IMG/VR virus record: IMGVR_UViG_3300045988_074841
DNA from: a virus
Length of the DNA: 64,000 nt
Reading direction: 5' to 3' (one strand)
Shown: piece by piece, positions 311-49,487 of the stretch
Position numbering within the stretch: the stretch's first letter is position 1
Layout: the number at the start of each line of letters is the position of its first letter
Notes under the pieces: generated by a model
Seen by the model: only the letters and a program-made list of their open reading frames with translations
Database searches by the model: none
Told to the model about the DNA's origin: nothing
Translations under genes and position numbers: made by a program

Positions 311-355
311 GGAGAACCTATCCATCTTCTACGGGGAGGTTCTCCTTTTTATTTT
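311..355 (+). terminator. Hairpin terminator (stem GGAGAACC/GGTTCTCC, T-run); loop carries a variant copy of the GC-rich element
   Basis: 8-bp stem 311-318/338-345 followed by TTTTTATTTT. Confidence 0.6.
326..339 (-). repeat. GC-rich element, variant copy (CTTCTACGGGGAGG) in terminator loop
   Basis: seen in sequence. Confidence 0.7.
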
Positions 356-2996: not shown

Positions 2997-3314
2997 ATGG
3001 CTTCAAATAATGAATTCATTGGTAATCGTGGTGGTATACCTTTAGTAGCTGCTACTCAAACGACTGCTGGCAGTACTACTGCTAATGCTGTTTTTAGTAT
3101 GCCTAATCATACTTTCAGAGCTATGGGAGTTGCTGGTATAATGGTAATTAATTTTAATGCAGCTACAACTACTGCAACTGGTTTTGAAATTATGATTAAT
3201 AATATCACTCTTCCTCTCTTGGCAAGTAATGGAGAAGCTCTTACTGCTCTTACAGAAGGTCTTCACATTATAGTATTTGATAAACAAAATAATAAACTTC
3301 AACTCATAGTATAA
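2997..3314 (+). CDS. Hypothetical protein (105 aa)
   Basis: ATG preceded by strong SD-like AGGAGG (2985-2990). Confidence 0.55.
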   Translation: MASNNEFIGNRGGIPLVAATQTTAGSTTANAVFSMPNHTFRAMGVAGIMVINFNAATTTATGFEIMINNITLPLLASNGEALTALTEGLHIIVFDKQNNKLQLIV

Positions 3315-4025: not shown

Positions 4026-4033
4026 TATGAAAT

Positions 4034-4095
4034 CCGCCCCGTAGAAGAGTGTAGTGGTAAGTCTTCTCTAACCATGCCTTCTACGGGGCGTTTAT
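4034..4095 (+). terminator. Composite hairpin: inverted pair of the GC-rich element (CCGCCCCGTAGAAG ... CTTCTACGGGGCG) with ~30-nt loop, then TTTAT
   Basis: Element copies at 4034-4047 and 4078-4090; loop similar to that of the 15866 element. Confidence 0.6.
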
Positions 4096-4108
4096 AATAA
4101 CTAAGCTT

Positions 4109-8900: not shown

Positions 8901-11900
8901 GACCAAGTTAATAATATTATTACATCTAAATATCTTACTAATGATAATGCTAATAAAGGTAAGTTGGAAGAAGCCAATACTGTTATGAATACAGCTTGGA
9001 CTGAATATAAGAACCTTATTAATACGCTTATAGATGCTAATACTGAAATAACTAAAATTAATATAGGAGAAGCTAATACTAAATATAAGAACCTTCAAGA
9101 GAAGATTAAAGCAGTTAAACAATATCTTGCTATTTGTCAAGCTGATGTACTTAGTGGTATGGGTACTGATATTACTTCATACAAATATCTTAAAGAAGCA
9201 TTTAAAGGTAAAACTGAAATAAATGGTGGTCTTGTAGTTACTAACGTACTTCAACTTCGTCAAACTTCTGATGCTTCTTCTCCTGTTACTGCTGGTATTA
9301 GTGGACTTCAAGGAAAAGCTAATGCTGATGGTATTGTAGATAAAAATACTTATGATATAACATCTATTGCTGCTTGGTTTGGCGGTCCAATGGTAGATAA
9401 AGATATATTTACAGATGAACAACTTAACAATAAAGTAGCTGGTACAGATTATGCTAGAAGTTTGTTTAGACATGATGGTAGTGGTTATTTAGCTAGTGGA
9501 GCTATTTATTGGGGAACTGATGGTGTATTACATGGCGACCCAAATAGTTTCATTCTTCAAGGTACTAGTATTGCAACAATATTTTATTATACTAGATTAT
9601 TCTATTTACATTATGCTAATCAAGATAGTACAGATTTTAATGATATAGATTATATTACTCCTAAGAAAACTTTTAGTAGACTTAATATTTTACCTTTAGG
9701 TGGTATTGAAGATAGTCATAATCTTCCTACTGGTTTATTTATTGGAGATAGTAATACTGGTGGTTCTTTTCAAATTGGTAATGTAATTCTTAGAACAAAG
9801 AGTGGAGATCCTAATATACTTGAAATAGTTAGTGCTAGTAGTAATAAAACAGCTCATCTTGGAGTACAAGGTGGAGTTAGTGCTTATGGAACATACACAC
9901 CTTCTACGGGGGGTGAAGGTGGACTAAATGGAACTATAATTCCTTATAGTACTGCTATTGCTTTTGACCCTCAAAATGAAGGAAGTAAAATAGCTAGTGC
10001 TAGTTCTATTTATAAGCTTCATAGTAGAATATCTAGTATTGAAAATAATGGTGCTACTAGTATAACTGTAACTGGAACAGGTAATGCTATTACTAGTGTT
10101 AGTAAAAATGGAACTAGCATTACTTTTACTAAAGATGCTACTTTCTTGACTAGTCATCAAAGTTTAGCAAATTATGTTACTATTAATGATAGTAGACTTA
10201 GTGATAGTCGTTATCCTAAATTTGCTAATAATACTTGGTATTTAGTAGGAGACGATGCTTATATTGGCGACCATAATAGAAATGGTATGTTTTGTATTAA
10301 ATCTGCCAATTCTGATAATGTAAGTGGTATAGCAATCTATAATAAAGCTGAAAGTGGTGTTGCTAATATTTGGTTTGATAATACAAATATAAACCTTGAT
10401 AAACAACTTGTTATGAAAAACAAGCGTATTTGGATTCAAGGTAACGGTACTGCTGGAGGTAATAATAATAGACTTACTATTGCGGCAGGTATGCCTGGTG
10501 GATTAGCATATAATACTTCATGTCGTGGAACTATTCTTTATTCTAATGGAATTGCATTCGCTGACCCATATAATGGTAATTCAAATAATGATAGTGGATG
10601 GATTAGACATTTAGAAACTTCTCCTAATAGTGGAACTTTAGAAATAGCAGTAGGTGATGATGCTTCAAATGAAGAAATTCATTTCAGATGGTATAATACA
10701 AATACTAGTGCAGAAACTATAGTACACGATATAACTGTTCCTAGATCTACAGGTACTTTAGTTTTAACTAGTCAAATACCTACAAGTCTTCCTGCAAATG
10801 GAGGTAATGCAGATACAGTTGATGGAATTCATGCAAATGGACTTCTTACTGCTCTATCTAATTCTGATAATGGAATTAGTATAACAGTTGGTGGAACTAC
10901 TAAAAGTGTTAGTAATATAAATGTAAATGGCGCTAATACAATTTTAGGAATTTCTCCTCAAATAGCTGCGGCTACAGAACATAATAGTATATATGTATCA
11001 AGTCCTGGTTATTCTACTAACAAACCAGTTAAAATGTTATGTTTTGATTGGTATGGTAATTATTGGGCACTTAGCAATATAAGAAGTGGAGATGAACATA
11101 GTAATGGATTTGGTGTATTTTTTAAAAATACAGAAATAGCTAGATTTACTTCTGATGGAAATCTTAGTTGTAATGCAGCTTCTGCAACTAAGCTGACTTC
11201 TTCAGCTGGCAGTGATACATTGCCAATTTATTTCTCAGATGGAAAACCTGTCGCTTGTACTATGAGTACTGGACGAAGTTATGGAATAGTACGATCTTTC
11301 GATCGTAGAACATATACATCTGCTAATCAATATTTCGGAAATGGTACTATTGTAGCAATAGATCCAAAAGGAGAGGGATGTATTTCGACAAATGATACTA
11401 TACTTTCATTGGGTGATTTGTCAATAAGAAATACTCAACTTTTAGTAGCATACGACAGAGATGGTGTTTATTATAGAAGAATAACAGATAATCTAAACTA
11501 TGGGAACTGGAAAAGATTAGCATTTACATCTGACAATGTAGCTTCTGCAACTAAACTTCAAACTCCTAGAACTATTTGGGGACAATCTTTTAATGGCACT
11601 GCTAATGTTAGTGGGTCTTTATCTGGAGTTGGTCATATACAATTTAGTGCAGATAATTCTTATAGTATTGGAACAAATACTTCAGAAGCGGCTCACACTT
11701 ATACAAGACAAGTATGGGCTAGACATTTAAATGCTAGTCGAGTTTATACTCGTGATACTAATTTATATATCGGTTATAGTAATACTGCGCAAGTAAAGTT
11801 ATATTCAGGTACTAAACAATCAGGAGACGGCTCTAATGAACGAATGACCATATCAACTAATGGTAATGTAGGTATTGGAACTGCTTCTCCTTCTTACAAA

Positions 11901-15855: not shown

Positions 15856-15865
15856 AACATTAAAC

Positions 15866-15930
15866 CCGCCCCGTAGAAGATGTAATTGGTAGAACTTCTA
15901 CTAATCATACCTTTTACGGGGCGGCTTTCA
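15866..15930 (+). terminator. Composite hairpin: inverted pair of GC-rich element (CCGCCCCGTAGAAG ... CTTTTACGGGGCGG) with conserved ~31-nt loop containing mini-palindrome GTAGAAcTTCTAC
   Basis: Copies at 15866-15879 and 15911-15924; sits between stop 15855 and start 15956. Confidence 0.6.
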
Positions 15931-22708: not shown

Positions 22709-25429
22709 ATGACTGTAAAAATTAAAAGAAGAAGTCTTCGTTGTGGTGGTAGACCTAAAGCTGACTTCGGTAGTATTTTTACTACATTTATTGCTCCTGC
22801 TTTAGGTGTTGCAGGTTCTGTAGCGGATTCTGCTATAAGTAAAACCCAAGTTTCAAAGAGCAATACTAAACAGGTTGTTAAAGATACTAACACAGAAGTT
22901 ACTAATAATAATACTTCTGTTGAGAATCTTCCTACTATTCAAGTTCCTACTAAAGATCCAATTAGTGGACTTGTTACTAGTAATACTGTTATTCCTCCTG
23001 ACCCAACTAAAACTCCTACTATGAGACTAGGTGGTAGAAAGAAATGTTGGATTGGTGCAGCCATTGGTGCTGCTACTAGTATAGCAGGTTCTTTATTTGG
23101 TGCTGCTGCTCAAAAAAGAGAAATGCGTCGGCAAAAGAGTATTCAAGATTGGCAGAATACAACTCAAGAAGCTGCTAATATGACTACTGCTCTTAATAAT
23201 AGTCAAGATTATCAAGAAGATTATCTTAGACAATTTAGAACTGCTGCTAGACTTGGTAAAACTCTTGGAGCTAAAGGTATTTATATTACTGATGGTGGAG
23301 ATGCTACTAAGATAGGAAACAACACATATCTTCTACGGGGCGGTTCTCACGAAGATGTGAATGAGACTGGTCAAACAGGTATTGGTATCAATGTTGGTGG
23401 TAATGAAGTTGAAGCTGAAGGTGGTGAAGTTGCTCAGAAGAAGAATGGTGCTCTAAGAATTTTTAGTGCTCAACCTATTCTTGGTGGTATAAGTCCTGCT
23501 CAAGCTGTAATTAATGGAGCTAACAAAGATAAAGTATTTAGTACTCAACAAACTTTTAAGAAAAGAAATGGTCTTGAAGATGATGGTAGTAAAGCTCAGG
23601 TTGGTGGTTATTATGGAGCTAACTATCCTTCTCCTTTGTCTTTATTATCTGTTATTTACGATAAAACTTTAGGAAGATTTGATAATAAAAATCCTTTCCT
23701 TCAAACAGGTACTGCACCAACTCCTAGTAGAGGTTTAAATCTTAAGCAAGTTCGTGGTGGACTTGTTAATAGAAATATGCTTCGTACTAATAGAGTTTAT
23801 CGTATATCAAATATGAGAGAAGTAAAAGATGCTAAATCTGTAGGACAATATAGAAAATTACCTGAAGGCGTTAGACTTCCTAAAAAAACTGTAGTAAGTA
23901 AAAATGGAAGAACTTTCTCGATTGGAAAAGTTGGTGGTAATAGTCATGGAGGAAAAGCTGCTGCTATGGGTGAACCTTGGACTGGAACAACTAGCGGAGG
24001 ATACAATGAAAGTAAATATGTTATAAGTACTCCTTCTAGACATACAGTTTGGCAAGTAGGTCATCATGGAAGTTATTCTAAACCTCTTCCTGCTGATGCA
24101 ATAAAAAAAGGTAGTGGTCTTTGGAAAAAATTCGATGCTGAAGGTAATACTGGAATTAGTACTAAACGCATGGTTGTGTATAAAGATTTAGGTAATGGTA
24201 GATATTTAAGATTAGCTAAAAGTAAATATAGACTTGGTGGCGGTTTAACTTCTAAAGATAGAGGTTCTTCTAAACATCCATATCCTTCTGTATCATCTAA
24301 AGATTTTGCAGGTGGTAGTAGAAGTTATCCTATTCCAACTAAAGATGATGCTGTTGATGCTTTAAGACTTGCTGGTCTTCATGGAAGAAGTGATGTTAGA
24401 AGTAAAGTATATAGTAAATATCCTAGTCTTAGAAAGAAGAGTTTATTAGGTGGTTGTAGCCGCCCCGTAAAAGGTATGAGACCTAAAGCTGATACTGGTA
24501 TCTTTGTTCCTTTCAATAAACGTTATACTTCTATTTATGATGCTCCAGATTATAATTCTGATTATAATGGTGGTAATGTTTTAGGTAACGGTGAAGTAAC
24601 AGTTACAGCTAAGAGAATTAAGCCTACTTTTATGAAACCAAATAATGATGCAATGAATATCATTAATCATCCTGCTAATGAAACTCCTTATATTCCACAA
24701 AGACATAATCGTAGTCGTACTATATTTAGTGGTGGAGATTATTTAGGATTAGGTATTGATACTCTTGCTGCATTAAGTACAGGTCTTGTAAATTATAATA
24801 CTGCTGGTAAATATGTTCTTCCTGATAGAGCACCTATTATTCAGGCTAGTAAATTACCTACAACTTATAATGTTAATCCTGAAATAGAAGAGGTTAAACG
24901 TTATAGAGATAGACTTACTGGGCAAACATTCAATAATACTTCAAGTTCTGTAGCTGCTCTTAATAGAAGTGGTGCTATTAATCTTGATGCTCTTTCTAAT
25001 CTTAGTAAACTTTGGGCTACTAAAGAGAATGAAGAGAACAAGATGCTTACAGAAGATGCTAAGAATCAACAAACTGTTGCAGCACAGAATGTACAGAATG
25101 AACTTGCTCGTCAAAGTGAAATTGCTAGAATTAAGAATGAAGCTAATCAAGCTAAGGGTGATGCTCTTAATGTTGGTCTTAGTGGATTGTCTCAAGCTTG
25201 GACTAATTTCTGGACTGCTGGTAGAACTGCTTATGAAGATGACCAAGCTAGACGTGCAATGATTGCTTCTAGTAAAGATGCTACTCCTACTAGACTTATG
25301 GAAATGGATTTTGATTTATCTCCTGATGTTATAGCTGCTCTTTATAGAACTTCTAACGAAGATAGAACTAAACGATTCTATTTGTCTAGATTGTCTCCTA
25401 AACAAAGACAAAAATATGGTATAAATTAA
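22709..25429 (+). CDS. Gly-rich virion cargo/ejection protein (906 aa) with glycine-zipper TM-like segments and C-terminal coiled coil
   Basis: FTTFIAPALGVAGSVADSAIS and WIGAAIGAATSIAGSLFGAAA segments; internal duplicated CGGRPKAD(F/T)G(S)IF module; two in-frame GC-rich element copies. Confidence 0.6.
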   Translation: MTVKIKRRSLRCGGRPKADFGSIFTTFIAPALGVAGSVADSAISKTQVSKSNTKQVVKDTNTEVTNNNTSVENLPTIQVPTKDPISGLVTSNTVIPPDPTKTPTMRLGGRKKCWIGAAIGAATSIAGSLFGAAAQKREMRRQKSIQDWQNTTQEAANMTTALNNSQDYQEDYLRQFRTAARLGKTLGAKGIYITDGGDATKIGNNTYLLRGGSHEDVNETGQTGIGINVGGNEVEAEGGEVAQKKNGALRIFSAQPILGGISPAQAVINGANKDKVFSTQQTFKKRNGLEDDGSKAQVGGYYGANYPSPLSLLSVIYDKTLGRFDNKNPFLQTGTAPTPSRGLNLKQVRGGLVNRNMLRTNRVYRISNMREVKDAKSVGQYRKLPEGVRLPKKTVVSKNGRTFSIGKVGGNSHGGKAAAMGEPWTGTTSGGYNESKYVISTPSRHTVWQVGHHGSYSKPLPADAIKKGSGLWKKFDAEGNTGISTKRMVVYKDLGNGRYLRLAKSKYRLGGGLTSKDRGSSKHPYPSVSSKDFAGGSRSYPIPTKDDAVDALRLAGLHGRSDVRSKVYSKYPSLRKKSLLGGCSRPVKGMRPKADTGIFVPFNKRYTSIYDAPDYNSDYNGGNVLGNGEVTVTAKRIKPTFMKPNNDAMNIINHPANETPYIPQRHNRSRTIFSGGDYLGLGIDTLAALSTGLVNYNTAGKYVLPDRAPIIQASKLPTTYNVNPEIEEVKRYRDRLTGQTFNNTSSSVAALNRSGAINLDALSNLSKLWATKENEENKMLTEDAKNQQTVAAQNVQNELARQSEIARIKNEANQAKGDALNVGLSGLSQAWTNFWTAGRTAYEDDQARRAMIASSKDATPTRLMEMDFDLSPDVIAALYRTSNEDRTKRFYLSRLSPKQRQKYGIN
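23330..23343 (-). repeat. GC-rich element copy (CACATATCTTCTACGGGGCGG) in 906-aa gene (LLRGGS)
   Basis: seen in sequence. Confidence 0.8.
24460..24480 (+). repeat. GC-rich element copy, 21 nt (CCGCCCCGTAAAAGGTATGAG) inserted in second copy of an internal duplication of the 906-aa gene (SRPVKGM)
   Basis: seen in sequence; absent from paralogous segment at 22741-22779. Confidence 0.85.
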
Positions 25430-26739: not shown

Positions 26740-28632
26740 ATGCTTAGTAAAAAAATATATAATCAATTTATAAGTGATGGAGATTATATTGGTGCTGCTA
26801 ATTATTTATCTCGTGCTCACTTTAGTGACCCAGTTAAACAGTCTCTTGTAAATCAAGCTATAAAGAAACTTAGAACTGATGGTCGTAGAATACAAGGTAT
26901 GATGAGTAGAGCTGATGAAAATCAACGTAAAGCTTTTAGTTTTCTCAATGCAGTAAATAGTAATAGTATTCTTCCTGGTCTTAATAATGGTACAGATGCT
27001 GATGGTAATAGACGTGCTCCAGATAATATTTTTAGTAAAGATTATTCTGAAGCTAAACGTAGATTAGGTAGCCAAGGTTCTAAAGAAGCAGAAAGTTTAT
27101 CTATTAAGTTTGGTGGACAAACTGAGAAAAGAAGACTATTAGGTTTAGATTGGCTTGCTAAAGACTACGAATATAAAACTGATGCTTTTGAAGATATGCT
27201 TAGAAGAAGCAGACTTAGTAAAGATGCATTAATTAAATCAGGAGCTAAAGTTAAAATAAAAGATGGTCAATATATTCTTGATATTAGTAAACGTAATCCT
27301 TTATTTAATAAAGTATATAATGCTTTACTTAGCACTAAAGGATATGATAATAATTATAGATTTCAAGTAGCTGGTATAGATGCTAAAGGTAAGCTTATAG
27401 GCATAGGTGATGCAGATAAAAATTGGATTAATAGAAGAAGTAGAACAGATATAACTAATACTGATGGTTATTATATTAATCCTACAGGTAATAATAATTT
27501 TGAAATGCCTAATAATATTATAGCTGCTGCAAATCAAACTATCCGCCCCGTAAAAGATATGAGTGGTGATGGAAGTGGGTTATCTACTGTTAGTTCTATG
27601 ATTCTTCCTTTTAATAGTGCTCGTAGAAAACAAATTAGTGATGCTCTTAATACTGGTGGACTTAATACCGAATTAGCTAATGCTCTTGTAAAAGAAAATA
27701 ATGAAGCTATTCTTAATGGTCTTATGAATGCTGATTTTACTCAGTATGAAATGTATGTTACTGATGAAGAAAATACTGATGACCATACTACAGTTCGTCA
27801 TACAGTAGATAGTAGTAATGAAAAAGCTAATATTCAAGATTTAGTACGTGCAGCTATTGCTAGCGGAAAGTTTGACCCAGAAACCCAAGTTTCTCTTGGT
27901 ATGCAAGGTAATCAAACTGGTTATGTTATAACTATTCCAACTAAGATGGATAATGATACAGAAACAGGTAATAGAATTGAAGATATTAAACAAAATAGTC
28001 GTCAAATATTTATTCCTGATTTTATGAATGGTGAAGCTGAGAAAGTATTCTCTCAAAATTCTCAGACTAGAGCTATGAAAGAACTTGCTAGTATGGAAAT
28101 GTATAATTATTCTGTTGATATTCCTCAAGATGGTAGACTTAATGTTTATAATGACCCTTCTACTGGAAAGGCAATTTATCAAATGGAATATGATAGTGGT
28201 AGAGTACAACCTTTAACTAAAGAAGATGCACTTCGTAAAGTTAACAAAATGCTCATAGTTGAGGATGGTATTGATTTAGCTAATAAACAATTTTACGATG
28301 AAGATGGTAATCTTCGTAAAGGTCTTAGAAATAAAGATGGTTCTTTAAATGCTCAATTTCAACAAGATTTAAGTAGACAAATAGACACTTATGTTACTAG
28401 TGCTATGAGTGAACTTTATCCACAAGCTTGGCAAAGTTTTGCTCCTATTGCTAATAATGTTATAAATGGAGATTTTTCATCTGAAGATTATAAGACTAAA
28501 TTAGCTAAAGCTATGGATAGTTTTGTAGATACAGATAATATTAATCTTATTAATAATCAAAGAGCTATTTATTCTAATTATATTCTTAGTAATATAGGAA
28601 TGTATGATAATGATGCTTATAATATTGATTAA
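26740..28632 (+). CDS. Hypothetical virion protein (630 aa)
   Basis: ATG ORF; contains one in-frame GC-rich element copy (IRPVKDM). Confidence 0.5.
   Translation: MLSKKIYNQFISDGDYIGAANYLSRAHFSDPVKQSLVNQAIKKLRTDGRRIQGMMSRADENQRKAFSFLNAVNSNSILPGLNNGTDADGNRRAPDNIFSKDYSEAKRRLGSQGSKEAESLSIKFGGQTEKRRLLGLDWLAKDYEYKTDAFEDMLRRSRLSKDALIKSGAKVKIKDGQYILDISKRNPLFNKVYNALLSTKGYDNNYRFQVAGIDAKGKLIGIGDADKNWINRRSRTDITNTDGYYINPTGNNNFEMPNNIIAAANQTIRPVKDMSGDGSGLSTVSSMILPFNSARRKQISDALNTGGLNTELANALVKENNEAILNGLMNADFTQYEMYVTDEENTDDHTTVRHTVDSSNEKANIQDLVRAAIASGKFDPETQVSLGMQGNQTGYVITIPTKMDNDTETGNRIEDIKQNSRQIFIPDFMNGEAEKVFSQNSQTRAMKELASMEMYNYSVDIPQDGRLNVYNDPSTGKAIYQMEYDSGRVQPLTKEDALRKVNKMLIVEDGIDLANKQFYDEDGNLRKGLRNKDGSLNAQFQQDLSRQIDTYVTSAMSELYPQAWQSFAPIANNVINGDFSSEDYKTKLAKAMDSFVDTDNINLINNQRAIYSNYILSNIGMYDNDAYNID
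27543..27563 (+). repeat. GC-rich element copy (CCGCCCCGTAAAAGATATGAG) in 630-aa gene (IRPVKDM)
   Basis: seen in sequence. Confidence 0.8.
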
Positions 28633-31600: not shown

Positions 31601-34600
31601 TGCTCTTCATCTTAGTGGTAATCTTAATTATCGTTTTGGTGAGCAAATACAAGAAATGCTTGCTAAAGATGATTTGTTTGAAGATACTAAACCTGCTGCT
31701 ACTCAAGCTCAAGAAGAAGAAGCTGAACAACTTAATTCTACAACTCCTGCTCCTACTGAAGCACCACCGACAGTGGAACCCCTAAATCCTTCGCTCTCAG
31801 CCCCTCAAATTAAGCAGACGGATAATTCATCAGGTTCACCACTTGAAAGCGTCACAGCGCAAGGAAATACGCAATTATCGAATGTTGGTACACAACAGCC
31901 TGCTGCGAAACCGAGTAAAATCGGAAAATTAAACTTTACAAATAATAAATTTGTAGCTAGTACTGGTAATGAGACTGCTTCTGATGATTATCAACTTGTT
32001 CCAACTCAGAATAACGATGAGTATGAAGTTCATCCTACAAGTAATGATAGCATTGCAAATCTTACAACTAATGAAGATTTGTTTGCTAATTCTAATATTG
32101 CTACTCAAGATAACGTAGGTATAACTTCTTATCCTATTGTTAGACTTACTGGTAATAATTTTGAAGTTGTTAGTCAAGGTAAACTAGGAATTGAAGATGT
32201 AAAAGAAGAAGAAACTTCACAGCAAACATCTTCTACGGGGGGTCTAGAACAAACTGAACCAGTAGAATCTCAAGCAGCAACTGAACCTATTCCTGAAGTA
32301 GAAGAGACTACTCCTGAAGTTGAAGAACCTAAAGTTCCTGATTTTATGGGTAATGCTTCTGACACTAAAGTCATTAGAGATGTTATTACTGAATTAAAAA
32401 CTACTCCTGATTTAGATTTAGATGCTAAAGCCAAGAGTATTCTTGATGATTATGTAGCTAAAGGATATAGTGAAACTGAAACTAAAAAACAAATAGATAG
32501 TGCTTTTAGACGTATTCGTAAGAGACAAGAAAAACTTATGAATAAAGAAAGTACTGTTGCTTCTGTTTATTTTAGTAGTTTTGACCAAGAAGAACGTAAT
32601 GCCAAATCTAAAAATGGTAAAGCTGTAGTATTTGATGATTCTTATAAAAAAGCTGTTAGTGACCTTCTTGATGTATACGCTAAAGATGCTGAACTTCCAC
32701 AAATTAATGGTAAGTATTATGGTAATCTTATGAACCTTATGGATTATATTAAGTCTGCTTATGATGATTATTCTATGGCTGACTTTATGTTTAATAGTTT
32801 GTCTGCTTATCTTAATACTCCTGAAGGTCAAGCTAAATTTAATATTACTGATGCCAATGATGTTAGTAATCCTGTTGCTTTCTTAAATAACTTCCATAAA
32901 TCTCAAGCTGAAAGAGATGCTGCTCTTTCTAATGGAACTGTTCATCAAGTTAATATGAATCTTTCAGATTTTGGAACTGATGAATATATGAAAGAAAGTT
33001 ATGCTGAACAAGTTAAACTTAAAAATGGCGATAAACTTACTATAGAAAGAGTTACTACAAGTAAAGGTACTAGTCGTTTAGGTATCAAATCTAACGGTAA
33101 ACTTGTTGGTAGTATATCAATTCCTTCTACAGGAGAAAGAGGAGAATATGTTCAAAAGAATGATGGACTTATTTATCATATAGATAAAGCTGATGGTTCT
33201 AAAGATGGAGCACTTAAACAAGTTCTTAAAGATATAGCTAGAAGTAAAACTCCTGAGCATGAAAAACTTAATGAAATTATTCATAAAGCTGCTTTTGATA
33301 AGTTTAACGCTGAACAGCTAGTTAATGAATTTAAGAGTAATCCTATTGTTCAAGATATGGTTAAGAATCATATGATTAATTTTGATGGAACTGGTCCTGA
33401 ATATGAAGTTGCTCTTAATGGTCTTGCTAAACTTTGGAGATATAACTATAAAGTTCTTACCGAAGGAAGGGTTAATAAGTTTACTGGTGCAGTAGTTGCT
33501 AATTCTATTGATAAATGGTTTGATACTCTCCGTGAAAGTTATAATGAAACTAGTAAATTAGATAACAATCCAAACATTGATATTGTAGCTAGTGATGTAT
33601 TTGAAGGTGAGCTTATTCGTAGTAATGATGGTACTTTTAAAAGTGATGCTGAAACTTCTCTACCTATTCAATTAGCTATCGCTAAAGATACTAAGTTTGA
33701 AATTGCTGCCAAATCTACTACTGGTGAATTTATTAATGGTATTGGAAGTAATAAGTTTCTTGTTAGTGTTGGTCGAACTTATGTTACTGTTCCTCGTAGT
33801 AACGGTACTGTAGATATTGTAAATGCTTATCCAGTGAGTTGGACAGGTGCTACATATTATACAAAAGATGACAAACAACAACAAGTTGAGACAGGTAAAG
33901 ACTTTAAGCAGCTTCAAAATGCTATAATTACTCAAATTAAAGATAGACTTGCTTCTATTAATGATGGTGATTTTGCTGAAAATAGAAATAACTTTATTGA
34001 TTTTATTGATAATCTTCTTAATATCAATAAAAATCCTATTTTCCTTAGTAAAGAACTATCTGTATTTAGAACTGCAAATATTCTTGGAATTAACTTTGGT
34101 AATAAGAATAATCAACTTCTTTTCTATAGAGATAAGAATGGTGATGGTGTAGGTCAAATAATTAATAAAGTTGATGGTAAACCTAATTATATTTCTTACA
34201 ATAGTGATTTATCTGCTGTAAGCGATAGACTTATTGAAGGAATAAAAAGTCTCAATTTCAATATTAACTTTGCTGTTTTAAAGTCTGATAATAATCATAA
34301 TATTCCTCTTCAAGGTATTACTAGTAGAACTACTGACGGTAAGTTTAAAATTACTATTCCTGAATATAAAGGGAAAAATGGTGTAAATCTTACTTATGAT
34401 AGTTTTAAAGATTTTATTCAACAAAACAATCTTCTTAGAGTTAATATGGCTCAAGAAAACGGTAGTAATATTAGAAGAACTGCTATTAATAAACAAGGAG
34501 CTAATGCTAGATTTAGTTTTCAAGTAACAAATAAACAAGAAAGCCGCCCCGTAGAAGATGTTAGTGATAGTTATATTTCTAAAGCTGATGAAATTAAATC

Positions 34601-35708
34601 CATTGTAACATCTGATTCTACAGATAAAGGTTTTGAAGTTGCTAGTGCTCTTTTATTAGATGATACATCTAAAGAGAAACTAAATAGTATTAAAAGTGAT
34701 AGTTCTTTACGTAAACTTTTAGCTAAAGATATTATCTTTGACGAAGAATTTATGAGTAAAGAACATGCACAAGCTAATGCTGTTTGGAGCAAAACTAAAG
34801 GTGGTAAAGTTGTTATTGGTCAGAAATTCTTAGATATGATTAATAGTAAGAAACCTGGTGAAAAAGGTAGAGCTATTAGAACTTTGATGCACGAAAATCT
34901 TCATGGTTATATTGAAGATATGGCTAATAATAAACGTCATCCTAATGCGGTTGCTAATCTTAGAAATAGAATGCAAGATATTTATGATGATTTTGCTACT
35001 GCTATTAATCAAGATATTAATGATTTAAAAGCAGGAAATATTGATGAGATTAAACAACGTAGACATATTCAAGATAAAGCTACTCTTGAAAAGATTAGTG
35101 AGTGGCTTAATAATGTTAATACTTTTACTGCTGAAAGTTATGCTACTCGTGAGAATCCTCAAGATGCTCTAGAAGAATTTATTGTTGAATCTCTTACCAA
35201 TGTTGATTTAATGAATTATCTTAATCAAGTTGACGCTGATGGTGGAGTAGTTAAAGGCAATACTATTTGGCAGAAAATACTCAAGTTTATTGGTGACTTG
35301 TTTGGTATTAATATTCGTCCTAATAGTCTTCGTGCTAAACAAATGGAAGCTCTTGGTGAAATATTTAAGAATAATCAAGAAGCTGAAGTTAAAGCTGAAG
35401 AAAAAGAAGAAGAAGTTACTCAACCAACAACATCTTCTACGGGGCGTATAGAAGAAGTTGAAACAGAAACAGTTGCTGATAATACTAATAGTGTTATAGA
35501 TAATGATGATGTTGGAAATGCTAATGAGGTGTTTGATATTAAGGATGAAGATGTTGATGCTGATGATGAATATGATGCTGATGAAAGTACTAGTGAAGAA
35601 GTAGCTTTCAATTCATTCAACTCAGCAATCGAATCTCTTCCGATGTCGGAACGTGCCAAATTTGCCTCTCTCGTTAGCTCTGCTGCGATTTCGATGTCTT
35701 GCAAATAG
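28635..35708 (+). CDS. Giant virion cargo protein (2357 aa) with HExxH zincin-like motif near C-terminus
   Basis: HENLH at 34890-34904 (LMHENLHGYIEDM); multi-domain with acidic low-complexity linkers; three in-frame GC-rich element copies; GC3-rich patches at 31760-31925 and 35600-35708. Confidence 0.6.
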   Translation: MNTENVFNNSGVIVSNPNYNPKTKKGRAQQPFFHTLDVSQDITSGAANEFAKNANNAWVMGDTHSYQRYGVTPNIITNLDKERAENQSNWTKAGNALGQTLVSQAILGTIKAVPDLFDAIANGFFTSDGDYQNPISNKIKEWQDYFDQEVAPIYSDPEHNDIYSGGLTNFGWWASNVPSVMSSLTLLLPATGIMKGAGAIGKALKLGARSRSGLKSLFGINKTLDNIERGVEGAQLSGFQSAAAKIINSTREGGKLNTFANVGGNAVLQRMMENYQEAQGVYQDVYKDATDKLNHMNNQDYQAFVNKNQELLQDVDTSDRNAVARKISKASADEDFKYNFGNLTFDIIQMYGLRGFWKGLKDRGGAYSLNQTLRNNKLAIGKTEEEIKAAADKVSAWTKARNKVWDRIKNEKLIVAGELSEGLEEGVNYIAQMEGTNLGKVLLDEADADKSPWDDRMKKYLRSGGLADSAFWGVMGGVVFHHLGSTFGKIQATIDEKNKTKKDDKTGESTPSSFGLSETGEIKARRDNMQSWLNTFNTFFDRAAKIKEGVNPFAGLNENSDIKGNTTAQEIAKSRAQDELITDLTLNAAHHGNAGYLREFIKSNEVRDALVNKGITTKEDATQTQQEILNKMDEVTQQYNNELTRVINIADNYAAHRKDDQVIPIEYLQMIATNNVKYGQDIARQEDKLNLTQSNINAALQVKEIADKLDDTSIDDLQRVAAQTILANNLAELYAQRREIEESAKTDISQAVALDNINKNIAAVQAQLTPDYLREAIRTGITAFHDENGVLKFKPNEGASKELKDIMSLDLTDAEGNEDATKRDDYFKRLDEYAIKHNIIGELSKYSDELSIAEQNKAFEDNRRKANEVLTAVDEFGIPGVVGKNFTDLLVDKAIAEVNRDYLRSKQVKNREDIASELSFLNQTLDDARVKVVNKSFDTVKDIAKRNKDNRDVIINAIGAYYNQDFENYDNFVSILNDKDKANLKESLDALHLSGNLNYRFGEQIQEMLAKDDLFEDTKPAATQAQEEEAEQLNSTTPAPTEAPPTVEPLNPSLSAPQIKQTDNSSGSPLESVTAQGNTQLSNVGTQQPAAKPSKIGKLNFTNNKFVASTGNETASDDYQLVPTQNNDEYEVHPTSNDSIANLTTNEDLFANSNIATQDNVGITSYPIVRLTGNNFEVVSQGKLGIEDVKEEETSQQTSSTGGLEQTEPVESQAATEPIPEVEETTPEVEEPKVPDFMGNASDTKVIRDVITELKTTPDLDLDAKAKSILDDYVAKGYSETETKKQIDSAFRRIRKRQEKLMNKESTVASVYFSSFDQEERNAKSKNGKAVVFDDSYKKAVSDLLDVYAKDAELPQINGKYYGNLMNLMDYIKSAYDDYSMADFMFNSLSAYLNTPEGQAKFNITDANDVSNPVAFLNNFHKSQAERDAALSNGTVHQVNMNLSDFGTDEYMKESYAEQVKLKNGDKLTIERVTTSKGTSRLGIKSNGKLVGSISIPSTGERGEYVQKNDGLIYHIDKADGSKDGALKQVLKDIARSKTPEHEKLNEIIHKAAFDKFNAEQLVNEFKSNPIVQDMVKNHMINFDGTGPEYEVALNGLAKLWRYNYKVLTEGRVNKFTGAVVANSIDKWFDTLRESYNETSKLDNNPNIDIVASDVFEGELIRSNDGTFKSDAETSLPIQLAIAKDTKFEIAAKSTTGEFINGIGSNKFLVSVGRTYVTVPRSNGTVDIVNAYPVSWTGATYYTKDDKQQQVETGKDFKQLQNAIITQIKDRLASINDGDFAENRNNFIDFIDNLLNINKNPIFLSKELSVFRTANILGINFGNKNNQLLFYRDKNGDGVGQIINKVDGKPNYISYNSDLSAVSDRLIEGIKSLNFNINFAVLKSDNNHNIPLQGITSRTTDGKFKITIPEYKGKNGVNLTYDSFKDFIQQNNLLRVNMAQENGSNIRRTAINKQGANARFSFQVTNKQESRPVEDVSDSYISKADEIKSIVTSDSTDKGFEVASALLLDDTSKEKLNSIKSDSSLRKLLAKDIIFDEEFMSKEHAQANAVWSKTKGGKVVIGQKFLDMINSKKPGEKGRAIRTLMHENLHGYIEDMANNKRHPNAVANLRNRMQDIYDDFATAINQDINDLKAGNIDEIKQRRHIQDKATLEKISEWLNNVNTFTAESYATRENPQDALEEFIVESLTNVDLMNYLNQVDADGGVVKGNTIWQKILKFIGDLFGINIRPNSLRAKQMEALGEIFKNNQEAEVKAEEKEEEVTQPTTSSTGRIEEVETETVADNTNSVIDNDDVGNANEVFDIKDEDVDADDEYDADESTSEEVAFNSFNSAIESLPMSERAKFASLVSSAAISMSCK
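32230..32243 (-). repeat. GC-rich element copy (CTTCTACGGGGGGT) in acidic linker of 2357-aa gene (SSTGGLE)
   Basis: seen in sequence. Confidence 0.7.
34544..34564 (+). repeat. GC-rich element copy (CCGCCCCGTAGAAGATGTTAG) in 2357-aa gene (SRPVEDV)
   Basis: seen in sequence. Confidence 0.8.
35434..35446 (-). repeat. GC-rich element copy (CTTCTACGGGGCG) in acidic linker of 2357-aa gene (SSTGRIE)
   Basis: seen in sequence. Confidence 0.75.
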
Positions 35709-35800: not shown

Positions 35801-38800
35801 ATGGCTTGTAATTTTAAAACAACAAGTGCTGGCACAAGCATTAAACGTAAGGTTGGAGCAAATAATGCTCGTTTTGTAGCGTTAATTAGTCTTATTAGTA
35901 ATCCTGAAACTGGAGGTTTTACTGATGAGTTTGTTAAGTATTATCAGAAAGTAAATCATACTGATAATATTCCTAGTGTTGATAATTCCGAAAGAGGAGT
36001 TATCGCTAAAACTGCTATCCGTTATTATAATAGTATTCACTTTGATGTTAATGCTCAAAGTACAGGTACTTATTATGATAAGGATGTAGATGCTTTCGGT
36101 TATAGTGATAGTCATGCAAAGGTATATGCTATTACTAGAGCAATTCCTAATATTATGCGTAGTATGTATGTTAGTGATATTAGAAGTGGAGAAATTGTTG
36201 ACAAGGATTCAATTCTTGGCGATTTAATTAAACGTACAAAAGTTAGGATAACTAAGGATGTTGCTGCTAATTATCTTAAAGCTATTGGTAAACCTGCAAC
36301 TAATGTTGAAGTTAATAAGATAGCTGATGCTCTTCTTAATAATAATGAAACTTATTATAAGAAAGATGAACTTATACTTGCTATAACTAAAGCTTTTGAC
36401 AAGAATGGTGATGTTCAAGTTCAAAATACTTTTGCTATTTATAAAGATATATTTAAAGATACTACTGGTAAAGATTTCTTTAATAGAGTTATTATTGCTG
36501 ACCCTATTATTGGTAATCTAAAATATAGCGATGAAACTGAATCTAGTCTTGCTGAAGCTTATGCTGAAGATTTTGATTCAGTAGATGATTCTTCTTATAA
36601 TAATAACGAAGATGAAGATGTACTTACTGTAGGTGATAGACAAGATAATACTTGGAATGATCATAGTGGTCTTGGTTCTAGTTATATGAAAGGTTTTGAC
36701 CTTGATATTCGTCTTAGTCTTTCTATGATACCTAAACTTACTAGTAATACTGTTGATACTAAGACTTTAAAGTCTGGTAAAGTAAAGGATGTTTACGATT
36801 ATGATAAAAACAATCCTACTGGTAATGTAGATTATATTGACGTAAAAGATATTATTAGTACTCTTAGTGCTAAGAAAGATGTTTCTAATCTTAATACTTT
36901 TATTGATAGTGTAAAAGAAGCTAGTAATATTCCTGGTATGGAAGGTCTTATTAAACTTTATAAAGACCTTACTTCTGATTTAGATTATGCTGCTCGTCTT
37001 TATACTCAATTCAAAACTGTAATTAACAAATATGAAACTCGTATTGCTGATGAGAATACAGCTATGAATAAGAGTAATAAGAATAGTAATGCTCAGCAAG
37101 TTCATGCTCTTAGTTTCCTTAATGATGCTAAGTTTACTCATATAAATACTGATTCTGATATTACCAATAAACTTGCTAATGAAGTAGATGAAACTATTGT
37201 AGAATATACTCAAGCTCTTGCTGCTGGCGATGAGTTTGCTTTAGACCAAGCTAAACTTTATAATACTATTGTTGATAGAATTGCTTCTCGCATTAAAGAT
37301 TATTATCCTAGTGCAGATAAAGCTTCTATTGATAATTATGTTCGTCTTGCTAATAATGGTGAAGTTGCTACCAATATGCGTTATCTTACTGATAGTCTCA
37401 GAAAGATAGCTAAAGCTTCTGATGCTACTACTTCTCAGTATACTGAAAATCGTGATGCTATTAGCGGTATTAACAAAGAAATTAGGAAACTTCAAACTAA
37501 AATTGACGCTCTCAACGAAGCTGGGGAACATAAAGGTATAGATAAAATCAATGAAGAAATAGATAAACTTGTTAGTCAAAGAGATAATATTCGATTTAGT
37601 GATTATCGTTCTCAAGATAGTATTACTCAGAGTATTGCTTTATCTGATAAACTTTATCCTTATTCTTCTGTTAAAGTTGAACTTAATTCTCGTAATGGTT
37701 TGGGTAATCTTCAATCTGATATTATCAATAGTTCCATGATTACTTATCTTCTTAAAGTACTCAATAGTCCTAAGACTACTACTGATGAATTAGGTAATAC
37801 CGCTCCTGAGTCTCTTGTTAACTTTGCTAAGTTTAAGTTTAAGAACAATCAATATAATCTTAGTAATATTCTTATTGAGACTAGAGAAAATGGTAAGATT
37901 GTAAATTATGGTCTCTTTTATTATGATGCTGACAAACAGAAATATGGTGTTACTAATTATGCTTCTGGTTTACTTAACGTTGCATTATTTAATGGAGCTG
38001 TAAAAACTGATGAAGGTACAGGTATTACTTATGCTCAAATGAGTAAAGGCGATTATGTTTATACTGCTTTTGCTAATTATTTTAATAGCGATAAAAATAT
38101 TGATGCTGATAGAGTAACTAATAGCATTCCTCTTGCTAATTACTTTATGAGAACTCCTTCTGATGCTCCTAAAACATTTGTAGTTCGTGCTCCACGTTAT
38201 CATATAACTAAGAGTAATCCAATTAGAACTGTAACAAATGCTGCTGATGTAGATAATTATATTAAGAATTATGTTGCAGAGCATATTGCTAGTATGTCTG
38301 AAGCTGCATTTAATCAAGCTAATCCTAGAGCTAAATTTATTCAACTTGAAGATAATCGTAGTGATCGTGCTCAAATTACTAGAGATTTAACTGATAATAA
38401 TATTACTCGTTCTGTATATGAGAATGAGATTATTCGTAATGATGGTAAAACTGCAACTATTGGTTATCAATTTACTGATGAAGAAGGTAATGTAAATAAA
38501 TATATTATTACCGGTTCTATTCGCCACGTAAAAGGTATGAATAAATTTGTTATTGAGAATGGTAAAGCTACTATTCTTGATAATAATGAAATGAGAGATA
38601 ATCTTCGTCCTATGATATATGATAAGTATCGTAAACAAGCTTATCGTAACGGTAGAATTGGTGATGTTCAAGTTGATTATAAAGTTAATAGAGAACATCC
38701 TATTTATAAACAATTTAGAAAGATATTTAATCAAGAGTTGACTAATATGGCTGAGGCTATTAATATGATATTCTTGACTGGCGATGATGGTGTTATTCAG

Positions 38801-49174: not shown

Positions 49175-49175
49175 A

Positions 49176-49196
49176 CCGCCCCGTAAAAGAGTTGAT
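49176..49196 (+). repeat. Solitary GC-rich element copy (CCGCCCCGTAAAAGAGTTGAT) 2 nt after vRNAP stop codon
   Basis: seen in sequence; no inverted partner nearby. Confidence 0.8.
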
Positions 49197-49228
49197 AATG
49201 TGAATTCTACTAATAAGAATTAAATAAG

Positions 49229-49296: not shown

Positions 49297-49331
49297 CCAT
49301 GAAATTACTACAGATATATGCGAAACTTTAT

Positions 49332-49402: not shown

Positions 49403-49487
49403 CAAATGCTATAAGTTCTAAACTACTTGCTAAATTAATTGTTTATAGGGTTTAAATGTGGTTTAAGGTGATATTTATAAAGTTCTT

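Follow-up and report, generated by a model that had tools for sequence, protein, structure and literature searches.

An extra in-frame 24-nt piece in a crAss-like phage gene is one copy of a conserved, oriented motif that recurs across the genome

Introduction

Does a short GC-rich run of extra codons within a phage gene mark a mobile insertion, or is it one instance of a sequence that the genome carries elsewhere for another reason? The question was raised by a 64,000-nt stretch of viral DNA (IMG/VR record IMGVR_UViG_3300045988_074841), referred to below as the window, in which a 906-aa ORF (22709-25429, + strand) contains two similar sites. A sequence-only reading had described these sites as paralogous segments of a duplicated module, the second carrying exactly 21 additional nucleotides (7 codons) that behaved as a discrete insertion or deletion unit. 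Homologues of the ORF were identified in the crAss-like phages p-crAssphage (KP06_gp47), crAss002 (gp30) and crAss001 (gp45; "putative transmembrane protein"). No viruses of the human gut outnumber the crAss-like phages, although little is known, to our knowledge, about their replication, packaging and DNA control.

Results

Both sites were in frame in the 906-aa ORF and their DNA read as originally quoted, with tgtggtggtag followed by acctaaagctgacttcggtagt at site 1 (22741-22779), and ggtggttgtag followed by CCGCCCCGTAAAAGGTATGAG and then acctaaagctgatactggtatc at site 2 (24451-24516). The net length difference, taken between the common "SL" and "RPKA", was indeed 21 nt, whereas the protein-anchored comparison (LGG ... 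RPKA) gave an extra piece of 24 nt, or 8 codons (TGT AGC CGC CCC GTA AAA GGT ATG), rather than 7. The boundaries of this piece were ambiguous because of an AG/AG direct repeat; the 24-nt version coincided with positions -5 to +18 of the motif described below, whose limits were set independently from all copies. A check for target-site duplication at site 2 revealed only a 2-nt AG repeat flanking the copy, which represents a single half-unit.

The duplicated module was not borne out. BLASTP produced no alignment between the site-1 and site-2 regions of the 906-aa protein, and the only DNA repeat between the two regions was 33 nt at 73% identity. The sites share instead a short linear motif, a real recurrent junction motif: the RPKA tetrapeptide occurs twice in the 16,500 codons of the window, both times in this gene, and also recurs at module junctions in relatives. 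Provided that RPKA is conserved at the protein level, codon bias by itself would yield the identical AGACCTAAAGCT at the two sites with a probability of 0.13. Homologues of the ORF were modular, ranging from 661 to 1269 aa among relatives; the ORF and its neighbours had no match in PHROGs and only one sub-threshold match (UBA) in Pfam.

Comparison with relatives dated the difference between the sites. Two relatives (L018 and L013) carried the junction without the piece, HRLGG/RPKA (slash, junction) versus LGG-YSRPVEGM-RPKA, and this exact 24-nt difference agreed with a discrete unit. Site 2 was filled in most relatives, the motif being absent only within larger module differences, and the site-2 insert was retained base for base in cr8_1 despite 43% protein identity. 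The extra codons were thus ancient and conserved in distant relatives, but so were their nucleotides. The refuting condition set with the original reading, which paired ancient codons with a lack of nucleotide conservation, thus had a mixed outcome. Site 1 was empty in 21 of the 21 relatives retaining the N-terminus, which, together with the age of the site-2 copy, spoke against current or recent mobility. The site-2 copy was located exactly at a mosaic junction, upstream of which the modules differed between relatives; junctions without the motif (LGG/RPKA and YPSL/RPKA) also existed in the same gene.

The extra codons corresponded to a GC-rich motif, complete at this site and repeated elsewhere in this 30% GC genome. 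The motif is ~24 nt long, T[AC][TA]A-N-CC[G/C]CCCCGTA[G/A]AAG[A/G]T-N-TG, with an invariant A at -2, as defined by regular expressions picked after the data had been seen. The 21-mer matched the window six times at ≤3 mismatches versus 0.00 expected, and these matches recovered all of the near-identical 21-mers reported before at 38521, 27543 and 56651. The 9-mer core matched 13 times exactly and 18 times at ≤1 mismatch versus 0.23 expected. In total, 21 copies were located on both strands in genic and intergenic DNA, some as 60-nt hairpin pairs (Table 1). Eleven of the 20 motif-matching copies were inside ORFs, or 12 of 21 when the degenerate 38521 copy was counted. The 15861-15929 pair was placed between a stop codon and the gene for tail ring protein 2, and the 23325-23348 copy was the 19-nt inverted partner of the site-2 copy; no inverted repeat of the 906-aa gene was stronger than the one they form.

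Table 1. Positions of the motif copies and of the motif-free site 1 junction in the window
Feature	Position	Strand	Remarks
Intergenic copy (CCTCCCCGT variant)	321-344	-	In terminator-like hairpin GGAGAACC...GGTTCTCC, then T-run
Tight inverted pair	4029-4052 (+), 4073-4096 (-)	both	~60-nt hairpin, -34.5 kcal/mol, z = -7.5
Antisense copy in 2537-aa ORF, ACCCCCCGTAGAAG, peptide YTPSTGGEG	9896-9919	-	
Tight inverted pair	15861-15884 (+), 15906-15929 (-)	both	Hairpin, -37 kcal/mol, z = -8.2
Site 1 junction RCGG/RPKADFGSIF, without motif	22741-22779	+	Same in 21/21 relatives with the N-terminus
Antisense copy in 906-aa gene, peptide TYLLRGGSH	23325-23348	-	No indel relative to distant homologues
Site 2 motif copy TGTAGCCGCCCCGTAAAAGGTATG, sense, peptide CSRPVKGM	24455-24478	+	21-mer as first described, 24460-24480
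Sense copy in 630-aa ORF, TIRPVKDM	27538-27561	+	L019: same-length AT-rich patch instead
Antisense copy in 2357-aa ORF, QTSSTGGLE	32225-32248	-	Orthologous to cr8_1 20142
Sense copy in 2357-aa ORF, ESRPVEDV	34539-34562	+	Orthologous in cr8_1, p-crAssphage
Antisense copy in 2357-aa ORF, TTSSTGRIE	35429-35452	-	
Degenerate sense copy in vRNAP ORF, TCGCCACGT	38516-38539	+	Intact CGCCCCGT in 9 relatives
Antisense copy in vRNAP ORF, INSSTGRLE	42589-42612	-	
Sense copy in vRNAP ORF, EIRPVEDV	43352-43375	+	Within lineage-specific inserted stretch
Intergenic copy, starts in vRNAP stop codon	49171-49194	+	156 nt upstream of tRNA-Gln (49332-49403)
Tail-to-tail inverted pair	52306-52329 (-), 52362-52385 (+)	both	Hairpin, -33 kcal/mol, z = -5.2
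Antisense copy in ORF 56384-57034(-), TIPSTGRVE	56646-56669	+	Orthologous to cr8_1 88046
Intergenic copy, degenerate second arm	59827-59850	-	Hairpin, -24 kcal/mol; orthologous to cr8_1 86686
Antisense copy in DnaG-type primase ORF 62308-63534(-), HIFYGADG	62689-62712	+	Orthologous in cr8_1

The copies were stable among relatives. All 13 window copies tested were kept at orthologous positions, each in 15-35 distinct relatives; the intergenic hairpins were kept too, and no clean presence/absence indel of any window copy was found among about 60 loci from relatives. Conversely, none of the 377 alignable motif instances in relatives was missing from the window save the point-mutated 38521 copy. 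Thirteen of the 17 cr8_1 copies in homologous regions had a window counterpart, and the 62689 copy was also orthologous in p-crAssphage, as judged by eye from the common flank "cttaatctatctt". Most copies were away from mosaic boundaries. In several cases the gain or loss of a copy left the length unchanged: the 23325-23348 copy overlies homologous codons of crAss002 and p-crAssphage without an indel, the window lacks, again without an indel, a vRNAP copy common to cr8_1 and p-crAssphage, and the 27543 core was lost in L019 through a same-length patch. Insertion as the general mode of gain was not supported by these cases. A p-crAssphage vRNAP copy (residue 3691) was accompanied by 5-6 extra codons. 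This stretch and the exact 24-nt junction indel are what an insertion mechanism would leave.

Codon usage identified the motif as a DNA-level entity. CGC (1.5% of Arg codons) and CCC (1.3% of Pro codons) are the rarest codons for their amino acids, and the sense copies contained 4 of the 10 CGC and 4 of the 6 CCC codons; because these rare codons are so concentrated, the motif clearly belongs to the DNA rather than to the protein. Each of the three antisense frames contained copies, as did intergenic DNA. In close relatives, substitutions in the core stood at 0.049 per site, compared to 0.12-0.13 in the adjacent 20-40 nt and about 0.065 gene-wide, so that conservation of the core exceeded the gene-wide level only slightly. 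In translation, the sense intragenic copies gave RPV(E/K) and the antisense copies mostly (S/P)STG(G/R), all polar linkers.

The arrangement of the copies was also far from random. Relative to a null of uniform placement, which gave a spacing CV of 0.93, the observed CV was 0.51-0.55, and on single strands it fell to 0.31-0.43 versus ~0.9 (P ≤ 0.008 in 6/6 strand sets). Neighbouring copies alternated in orientation in 56 of 75 steps versus 38.5 expected (P = 5e-5), remained significantly alternating without the tight pairs (P = 1.5e-4), and did so in 22 of 27 steps in crAss002 (P = 0.001). Even spacing and alternation were examined in five genomes, which are not fully independent because the window and cr8_1 share most sites. 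Control frequent 9-mers had a CV of about 0.95-1.0 and an orientation change fraction of 0.36. Relative to transcription, 49 copies were sense and 57 antisense, and copies in the non-transcribed orientation were equally frequent and evenly spaced in both gene blocks. The motif is strand-specific, over-represented and genome-wide, including within genes.

Related words numbered 27 in cr8_1, 31 in p-crAssphage and 28 in crAss002, a cultured phage. Their variants were concerted within each lineage, with CCCCCCCGT in cr8_1, CCCTGT in contig 3300013947_000034 and CCCCAT in crAss002. In the crAss001 genome the pattern recurred, but its word was CTCCAGAAG; that of crAss002 was TTCCCCCRTARAGG, and both of these phages infect Bacteroides. 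This difference in the word between two phages with a common host genus indicates a phage factor rather than a host enzyme. A search of 185,579 bacterial genomes with the 19-nt form common to the window and cr8_1 produced only 10 scattered single matches, and a host repeat or host Chi was rejected on these two grounds. In IMG/VR, the 14-mer returned mostly the same clade plus random single matches among the matches listed. Full-text literature searches on the motif strings and on crAss promoters, terminators and repeats retrieved no description of the motif.

Three other explanations of these observations were weighed. In the first, which takes up the original interpretation, the copies are a selfish mobile GC-rich mini-element of the kind of yeast mitochondrial GC clusters, Rickettsia palindromic elements or REP/REPIN, one that inserts in frame and is kept uniform by gene conversion; conversion from a master copy could have produced the lineage-wide concerted variants. 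The base composition of the unit relative to its 30% GC genome, the 60-nt palindromic hairpins that would be complete elements of two units, and the narrow zones rich in indels and substitutions in which copies are found are all compatible with this, as are the extra residues beside the p-crAssphage vRNAP copy and, above all, the LGG/RPKA versus LGG-xSRPVKGM-RPKA difference, whose exact 24 nt match the motif limits and are flanked by AG/AG. We nevertheless consider a mobile element improbable. No copy showed clean presence/absence in the roughly 60 loci from relatives, and selfish spread does not predict the even per-strand spacing and alternation in five genomes; several copies were gained or lost without length change, and orthologous copies persist across subfamilies amid flanks too diverged to be recognised and in a shifted reading frame. 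The annotations of cr8_1, p-crAssphage and crAss002 list no transposase save a 56-aa cr8_1 ORF labelled "transposase", and genomes of the alpha-gamma group are stated to be without MGE insertions (Yutin et al. 2021, PMC7886860). Conservation of the peptide RPVKGM/RPVED as a linker or protease-recognition motif, with nucleotide identity as a by-product, is far less credible still. All four sense intragenic copies do use one frame, RPV(E/K)(D/G)(M/V), in consecutive large virion/ejection proteins, and they adjoin LGG motifs resembling cysteine-protease sites in a group where cr8_1 has an annotated cysteine proteinase. However, the same 20+ nt recur between genes and, in antisense, in three frames, CGC and CCC are conserved although they are the rarest codons for their amino acids, and the orthologous 34539 copy is read in three frames in three lineages (ESRPVEDV in the window; PPRKEN and RPPVEDG in cr8_1 and p-crAssphage), which already contradicts a peptide reading.

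A role in RNA, with the tight pairs as terminators, 3′-stabilisers or RNase III-type processing hairpins and the solo copies pairing over long range, fits the tight pairs at least, because they form very stable hairpins (-33 to -37 kcal/mol, z = -5 to -8) directly after stop codons; the 321-344 copy likewise lies in a canonical stem followed by a T-run. For solo copies, opposite copies on one transcript would pair through the G-arm CUUCUACGGGGCGG and the C-arm CCGCCCCGUAGAAG, a model that predicts both the equal sense and antisense numbers and the alternation along the transcript, and that accommodates the antisense-then-sense pairs in large virion genes of the window, cr8_1 and p-crAssphage, including the 23325-23348/site-2 pair as the strongest inverted repeat of its gene. 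Against this, in four genomes neighbouring opposite copies were no more complementary than random opposite pairs, and hence the partners did not covary. In the distant relative L215, arms of both hairpins carried uncompensated changes, inner stems had mismatching variants, and no compensatory changes were found in hairpins among relatives. A regular-expression search of the loci for tight pairs was too strict and recovered only one element family. The solo 49171-49194 copy had no local structure (z = +0.25) and the site-2 copy no stem-loop; Rfam 15 at the gathering threshold matched only the tRNA-Gln in the whole window and not the motif. Cleavage or termination signals within essential long ORFs would be costly, and the equal frequency and even spacing of copies in the non-transcribed orientation in both gene blocks also speak against a role in RNA, which we regard as unlikely.

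Discussion

Our analysis argues strongly that the motif is a conserved cis signal acting at the nucleotide level, and we lean, with less assurance, towards its being a strand-specific signal for a phage-lineage-specific factor. Intestiviridae crAss-like phages would keep a ~24-nt cis-acting signal about every 3.5-4 kb, or about every 6-7 kb per strand, and its copies, genic and intergenic alike, would alternate in orientation. Selection would act on the nucleotides, and an intragenic signal would be tolerated only where its translation is harmless, as in polar linkers. At site 2 the signal appears to fill an 8-codon linker at the LGG/RPKA module junction of a modular virion/ejection protein, having been acquired, by insertion or by linker remodelling, before the cr8_1 lineage branched off, and retained thereafter. 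Because of this early acquisition and retention, the difference between the two sites is probably an old gain rather than active mobility, and gives no evidence that the unit is actively mobile.

The data show the definition of the motif, its set of copies and their conservation, frame independence, spacing, alternation and lineage-specific variants; we infer its action on DNA rather than RNA, as we do the identity of the factor and of the process. A phage-lineage-specific factor may read the motif in one orientation, on DNA accessible from either direction, with candidate roles for the motif as a loading, nicking, priming or recombination-control signal in phage DNA replication or recombination; a directional DNA transaction of this kind is a tentative proposal. 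Orientation and spacing statistics are what hint at a factor tracking along DNA, and we put that idea forward with equal reserve. The tight inverted pairs could represent two sites back to back, which also form stable hairpins at gene-block boundaries. Just as tentatively, Crassvirales may possess a previously undescribed genome-wide system of lineage-specific, oriented 9-24-nt words, ~6-7 kb apart per strand, together with a co-evolving phage factor. Such words would be written even into essential genes via tolerant linker codons, and the factor would control a directional DNA transaction, for instance nicking of one strand, the regulation of replication or recombination, or shielding against a DNA-tracking defence. 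The in-frame "insert" at site 2 would then be one visible footprint of that system.

The motif offers a concrete, testable handle on these phages, being present in p-crAssphage and the cultured crAss002 and having a counterpart word in crAss001. It names a cis site and predicts a co-evolving trans factor, and it accounts for odd GC-rich islands of rare codons and for short linker peptides in giant virion proteins. In annotation and engineering, these 24-mers should be neither recoded blindly nor read as mobile DNA insertions.

Several known systems resemble the motif in part. Yeast mitochondrial GC clusters and Rickettsia palindromic elements are selfish in-frame insertions, optional between strains and not known to be evenly spaced. 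The motif is similarly GC-rich in an AT-rich genome, with hairpin potential, AG/TAG borders and a short in-frame peptide, but its copies, fixed and deeply conserved, alternate at even spacing, several arose without insertion, and the intragenic unit is only 24 nt, half a palindrome. REP/REPIN sequences are extragenic and mobilised by a RAYT transposase, and architectural or RNA-stability roles have been given to REPs. They share with the motif the occurrence as singlets and as inverted doublets forming long hairpins, a conserved TAG/GTAG-like 5′ part, and copies largely fixed at orthologous positions; about half of the motif copies are inside ORFs, however, and the annotations of the complete relatives cr8_1, p-crAssphage and crAss002 include no RAYT-like gene. 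PeSL cassettes of T4-type phages are promoter-plus-stem-loop repeats that mediate module shuffling, intergenic and clustered in hyperplastic regions. Here too a stem-loop-forming sequence is repeated in a lytic phage genome and the site-2 copy falls precisely on a mosaic junction, but PeSLs are intergenic, most motif copies are off mosaic boundaries, and junctions in the same gene also occur without the motif.

The promoters of T7, T3 and SP6 are ~20-23-nt asymmetric words of single-subunit phage RNA polymerases. Like them, the motif is near-identical within a genome and has a conserved core and lineage-specific positions changing in concert; unlike them, it is as often antisense as sense and frequently deep in ORFs, and some of its tight pairs are head-on. 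The distance to the next start codon varied without pattern from 49 to about 300 nt, and a promoter was rejected on the orientation balance (49 sense, 57 antisense), these variable distances and the head-on pairs. In the crAss-like phage phi14:2, early vRNAP transcripts showed no shared motif upstream, and the host RNAP serves the middle and late genes (bioRxiv 10.1101/2020.03.07.982082). A scan of our sequence for sigma-70-type promoters gave no more matches than in shuffled sequence.

Chi (RecBCD/AddAB) and KOPS (FtsK) are oriented words of 5-8 nt, read by a machine travelling along DNA. The motif differs from both in its length of 20-24 nt and in an orientation that alternates instead of following the direction of replication, and from Chi in a word that changes between phages of one host genus; a further point of difference is that these phages carry Gam-like nuclease inhibitors. 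What it has in common with both is a short strand-specific word, hugely over-represented and dispersed genome-wide, including inside genes; with Chi it further shares one G-rich strand and a density, about 1 per 3.5-4 kb, similar to that of Chi in E. coli.

A recurrent motif at a module junction of the 906-aa gene

Both stretches of the 906-aa ORF compared in the sequence-only reading were present as quoted. In a window of ~30% GC, site 1 encodes RRSLRCGG·RPKADFGSIF (dot, junction) without the motif, and site 2 encodes KKSLLGGCS-RPVKGM-RPKADTGIF with CCGCCCCGTAAAAGGTATGAG at 24460-24480. Chance was excluded as the source of the element, because its 21-mer matched six times in the window at ≤3 mismatches (0.00 expected) and its 9-nt core 18 times at ≤1 mismatch (0.23 expected). 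The two sites had been described as paralogous segments of a duplicated module. BLASTP between the two segments of the protein gave zero alignments, the sole DNA repeat between them was 33 nt long at 73% identity, and under the codon bias of the window (AGA 53%, CCT 78%, AAA 76%, GCT 83%) identical codons for two independent RPKA peptides had a probability of 0.13. RPKA occurred only twice in 16,500 window codons, both times within this gene, and what the two sites have in common is therefore a genuine short motif at a junction rather than a duplicated module. The with/without comparison remains valid for this junction motif: the eight additional site-2 codons, TGT AGC CGC CCC GTA AAA GGT ATG, correspond to motif positions −5 to +18, so that the indel coincides with the motif limits. 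The element at site 2 is one copy of a signal, situated where modules join, in a linker of eight codons.

We compared the gene at 24 IMG/VR loci carrying it; the window belongs to a crAss-like phage (Intestiviridae) whose nearest annotated genome is cr8_1 (MT774384). With orthologues of 661-1269 aa, the gene is modular. Site 1 was empty and identical in 21/21 relatives holding the N-terminus. Three states were seen at internal junctions. The motif was lacking from LGG·RPKA, the state of L018 and of L013 at residue 423, and from YPSL·RPKA, the state of L009, L010, L022, L015, L019 and cr8_1; it was present in LGG-xS RPV(K/E)(G/S)(M/I)-RPKA, the state of most relatives. Exactly 24 nt separated L018 from L019 in this comparison. 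Although the cr8_1 protein is only 43% identical, gaaagCCGCCCCGTaaaaggtatgagacg stands at the matching junction in cr8_1, which makes the filled state an old one that is conserved as nucleotides. The site-2 event is older than the split from cr8_1, and the copy is kept by selection.

The gene family of the window and these loci (L001-L024) is a mosaic of modules joined at (K/R)xxLGG·RPKA junctions. Further internal LGG motifs lie at ~23020 (MRLGG·RKK) and ~24230 (YRLGG·GL), and LGG-type motifs occur at the C-termini of crAss002 gp30 (RCGGKKKIA) and p-crAssphage gp47 (KLGGKQSCR). LxGG is similar to the sites of adenain/Ulp-type cysteine proteases, and a cysteine proteinase is annotated in cr8_1. 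The LGG motifs could mark where an ejection protein resembling a polyprotein is processed.

Copies in the window

Alignment of all window copies defined a motif of ~24 nt, T[AC][TA]A-N-CC[G/C]CCCCGTA[G/A]AAG[A/G]T-N-TG, with an invariant A at position −2 and a nearly invariant core. Twenty copies fit this expression, in addition to a point-mutated copy at 38521. Nine of the 20 are intergenic; inverted copies form tight pairs whose hairpins have folding energies of −33 to −37 kcal/mol (z = −5 to −8). Eleven copies lie within ORFs, or 12 counting that at 38521. All four sense intragenic copies translate as RPV(E/K)(D/G)(M/V), and the seven antisense ones use three frames, five giving (S/P)STG(G/R). 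The sense copies hold 4/10 CGC and 4/6 CCC codons among 16,493 codons, these being the rarest Arg and Pro codons of the window (1.5% and 1.3%). A solo copy begins within the stop codon that closes the 4457-aa vRNAP ORF, with tRNA-Gln(UUG), the only tRNA in the window, 156 nt downstream; this arrangement is kept in cr8_1.

Coordinates of motif copies and associated features
Genome	Feature	Coordinates	Remark
Window	906-aa ORF	22709-25429 (+)	
Window	site 1	22741-22779	motif absent
Window	site 2	24451-24516	copy at 24455-24478
Window	head-to-head pair	4029-4096	intergenic
Window	head-to-head pair	15861-15929	intergenic
Window	tail-to-tail pair	52306-52385	intergenic
Window	antisense copy	23325-23348	YLLRGGSH
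Window	vRNAP copies	38516-38539, 42589-42612	
cr8_1	vRNAP copies	13907, 10521	homologous sequence
Window	solo copy	49171-49194	region with tRNA-Gln 49171-49403
cr8_1	motif, tRNA-Gln	3408, 3159-3230	arrangement as in window
cr8_1	cysteine proteinase	46167-46760	
Window	primase ORF	62308-63534	PHROG 'DNA primase'
p-crAssphage	copies with CGCTnCGCT stretch	6032-, 28077+, 28183-, 44953+, 58727+, 93667+, 95875-	sign, strand

Conservation in place

Relatives were added at the 2357-aa ORF (16 loci), ORF 56384-57034 (36 loci) and the 2537-aa ORF (26 loci). All 13 tested window copies (13/13) were kept, each in 15-35 distinct relatives and within variable flanks, and the intergenic hairpins were kept likewise. 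Conversely, 377 motif instances in relatives aligned across the motif to the window, which 'lacked' only the 38521 copy, owing to a single C-to-A change. The proposal of a discrete unit compatible with the reading frame thus holds in the limited sense that the site-2 indel follows the motif limits, but current mobility was not borne out: the family of copies shows patterned placement, not mobility. According to Yutin et al. 2021 (PMC7886860), alpha-gamma crAss genomes are free of mobile-element insertions.

With 15 copies pooled over ±40 nt, the core had 0.049 substitutions per site among close relatives vs 0.12-0.13 in the adjoining 20-40 nt on each side. Against a gene-wide background of ~0.065 the flanks were about twice as variable, and gaps were 5-8 times more frequent in them. 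The core is a conserved island within a fast-evolving linker; either the linkers that hold the copies are free of constraint, or mutation or recombination is raised locally at the site.

Several copies differed between genomes with no indel. The antisense copy of the 906-aa gene aligned with crAss002 FLLKGRKH and p-crAssphage FYMNGRKH codon for codon, and a vRNAP antisense copy common to cr8_1 (SLYGGARDG) and p-crAssphage (ILYGGSTRG) was missing, again with no indel, in the window (SLYNGSKGG). Other copies coincided with extra residues, at site 2 and at p-crAssphage vRNAP residue 3691; therefore both routes of origin occur, and the copies are not generally insertions. In L019 (IMGVR_UViG_3300045988_053636, ~8970-9000, the counterpart of window 27530-27560), an AT-rich patch of equal length stands in place of the core of copy 27543, and the flanks on either side are nearly identical (caaatagttcataatataaaagg vs caagctatccgccccgtaaaagg, ~11 changes in 15 nt). 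The pattern resembles replacement of a short patch more than gradual decay, and another small patch follows 25 nt further downstream. The orthologous copy at 34539-34562 is translated in different frames in three lineages (RPVEDV, PPRKEN, RPPVEDG), which a peptide-level explanation cannot account for; selection is on the nucleotides. In vRNAP, window and cr8_1 copies stand ~500 nt apart in opposite orientation, which suggests turnover, a lost site being replaced nearby with the alternating pattern kept overall.

Related words across Crassvirales

In homologous regions, 13/17 cr8_1 copies had a window counterpart. The whole genome of cr8_1 holds 27 copies (consensus tctagCC(G/C)CCCCGTAAAAGGTATGTA), p-crAssphage (BK010471) 31 copies of (G/T)(T/A)(A/G)AC(C/T)CCCCGT(A/G)GAGGATGGA, and cultured crAss002 28 copies of TTCCCCC(G/A)TA(A/G)AGGAG. 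Variants were concerted by lineage: CCCCCCCGT in cr8_1-like genomes, CCCCAT in crAss002, and CCCTGT instead of CCCCGT at five orthologous copies of a more distant relative, contig 3300013947_000034 (L023/L162/L215). The hairpin arms of this contig read CCCGAT/CCCGGT, with CCCCAT in single copies elsewhere. Many variants are transitions at the core CpG, which fits cytosine deamination or a shifted recognition sequence. The CCCCGT motif was absent from crAss001 (MH675552; Steigviridae, another Crassvirales family), which holds 27 copies of CTCCAGAAG, 75-fold enriched.

In p-crAssphage, ~25 nt rich in CGCTnCGCT directly precede 7/31 copies and by eye form a small GC hairpin (4-6-bp stem, 3-4-nt loop); this stretch was absent at the other p-crAssphage copies, and no counterpart was observed in the window. 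The linear record of cr8_1 stops precisely within a motif copy, in its C7/G7 run (92668), and carries it again at 55; the break and 55-nt terminal redundancy are probably a homopolymer coverage or assembly problem rather than a physical genome end.

Even spacing and alternating orientation

With motif expressions picked after the data were seen, uniform placement as the null model, and the window and cr8_1 not being independent genomes, the coefficient of variation (CV) of spacing was 0.51-0.55 vs 0.93 for random placement, and 0.31-0.43 vs ~0.9 per strand (P ≤ 0.008 in 6/6 strand sets). Orientation alternated between neighbours at 56/75 steps (38.5 expected, P = 5e-5), and at 43 with tight pairs excluded (29.5 expected, P = 1.5e-4). 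Alternation in crAss002 was 22/27 (P = 0.001), with a CV of 0.40 on the minus strand (P = 0.0002) and 0.65 on the plus strand (P = 0.10). The CTCCAGAAG word of crAss001, a different word from another family, showed this genome-wide behaviour too: it alternated at 19/26 steps (P = 0.004) with a plus-strand CV of 0.46 (P = 0.0006). Frequent 9-mers used as controls gave CVs of ~0.95-1.0 and an orientation change fraction of 0.36. Relative to transcription the copies were balanced (49 sense, 57 antisense).

Recognition as DNA or RNA

An RNA role, as terminator or processing site, is plausible for the tight pairs, excellent hairpins directly after stop codons, and for the copy at 321-344, which lies within a classic stem followed by a T-run. 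As a general constraint, however, RNA pairing disagrees with the solo copies, which have no local structure (49165-49260, z = +0.25), with opposite neighbours being no more complementary than random pairs, and with the uncompensated changes in the hairpin arms of the distant relative L215. Spacing is also even in both orientations whichever strand is transcribed, and the motif had no match in Rfam. These results therefore favour a signal recognised on DNA, in one orientation, by a factor approaching from either side.

The words differ between phages infecting one host genus (crAss001, crAss002), and the motif, whose 19-nt form gave only 10 scattered single hits in 185,579 bacterial genomes, is not a bacterial repeat; the signal is therefore probably read by a co-evolving factor that the phage encodes. 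Since the primase ORF of the window models as a DnaG/T7 gp4-type enzyme, a dedicated ssi-type primase is an unlikely candidate. Recognition on DNA might serve in strand-specific nicking, in loading or recombination control, in protecting against a DNA-tracking nuclease, or in binding of an architectural factor.

Comparison with known systems

Full-text literature searches found nothing for the motif strings, nor for such a repeat in papers on crAss phages. A common motif was not found for phi14:2 vRNAP transcripts (Drobysheva et al., bioRxiv 10.1101/2020.03.07.982082).

The nearest analogues are Chi and KOPS, which are oriented architecture words; others are REP/REPIN, T7-type promoters and PeSL cassettes, together with the yeast mitochondrial GC clusters and Rickettsia RPE, which are in-frame selfish elements. 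Each is partly alike, but each failed at least one tested defining feature. The motif set is best placed among dispersed oriented genome words, with a substantial chance of being a new kind of system.
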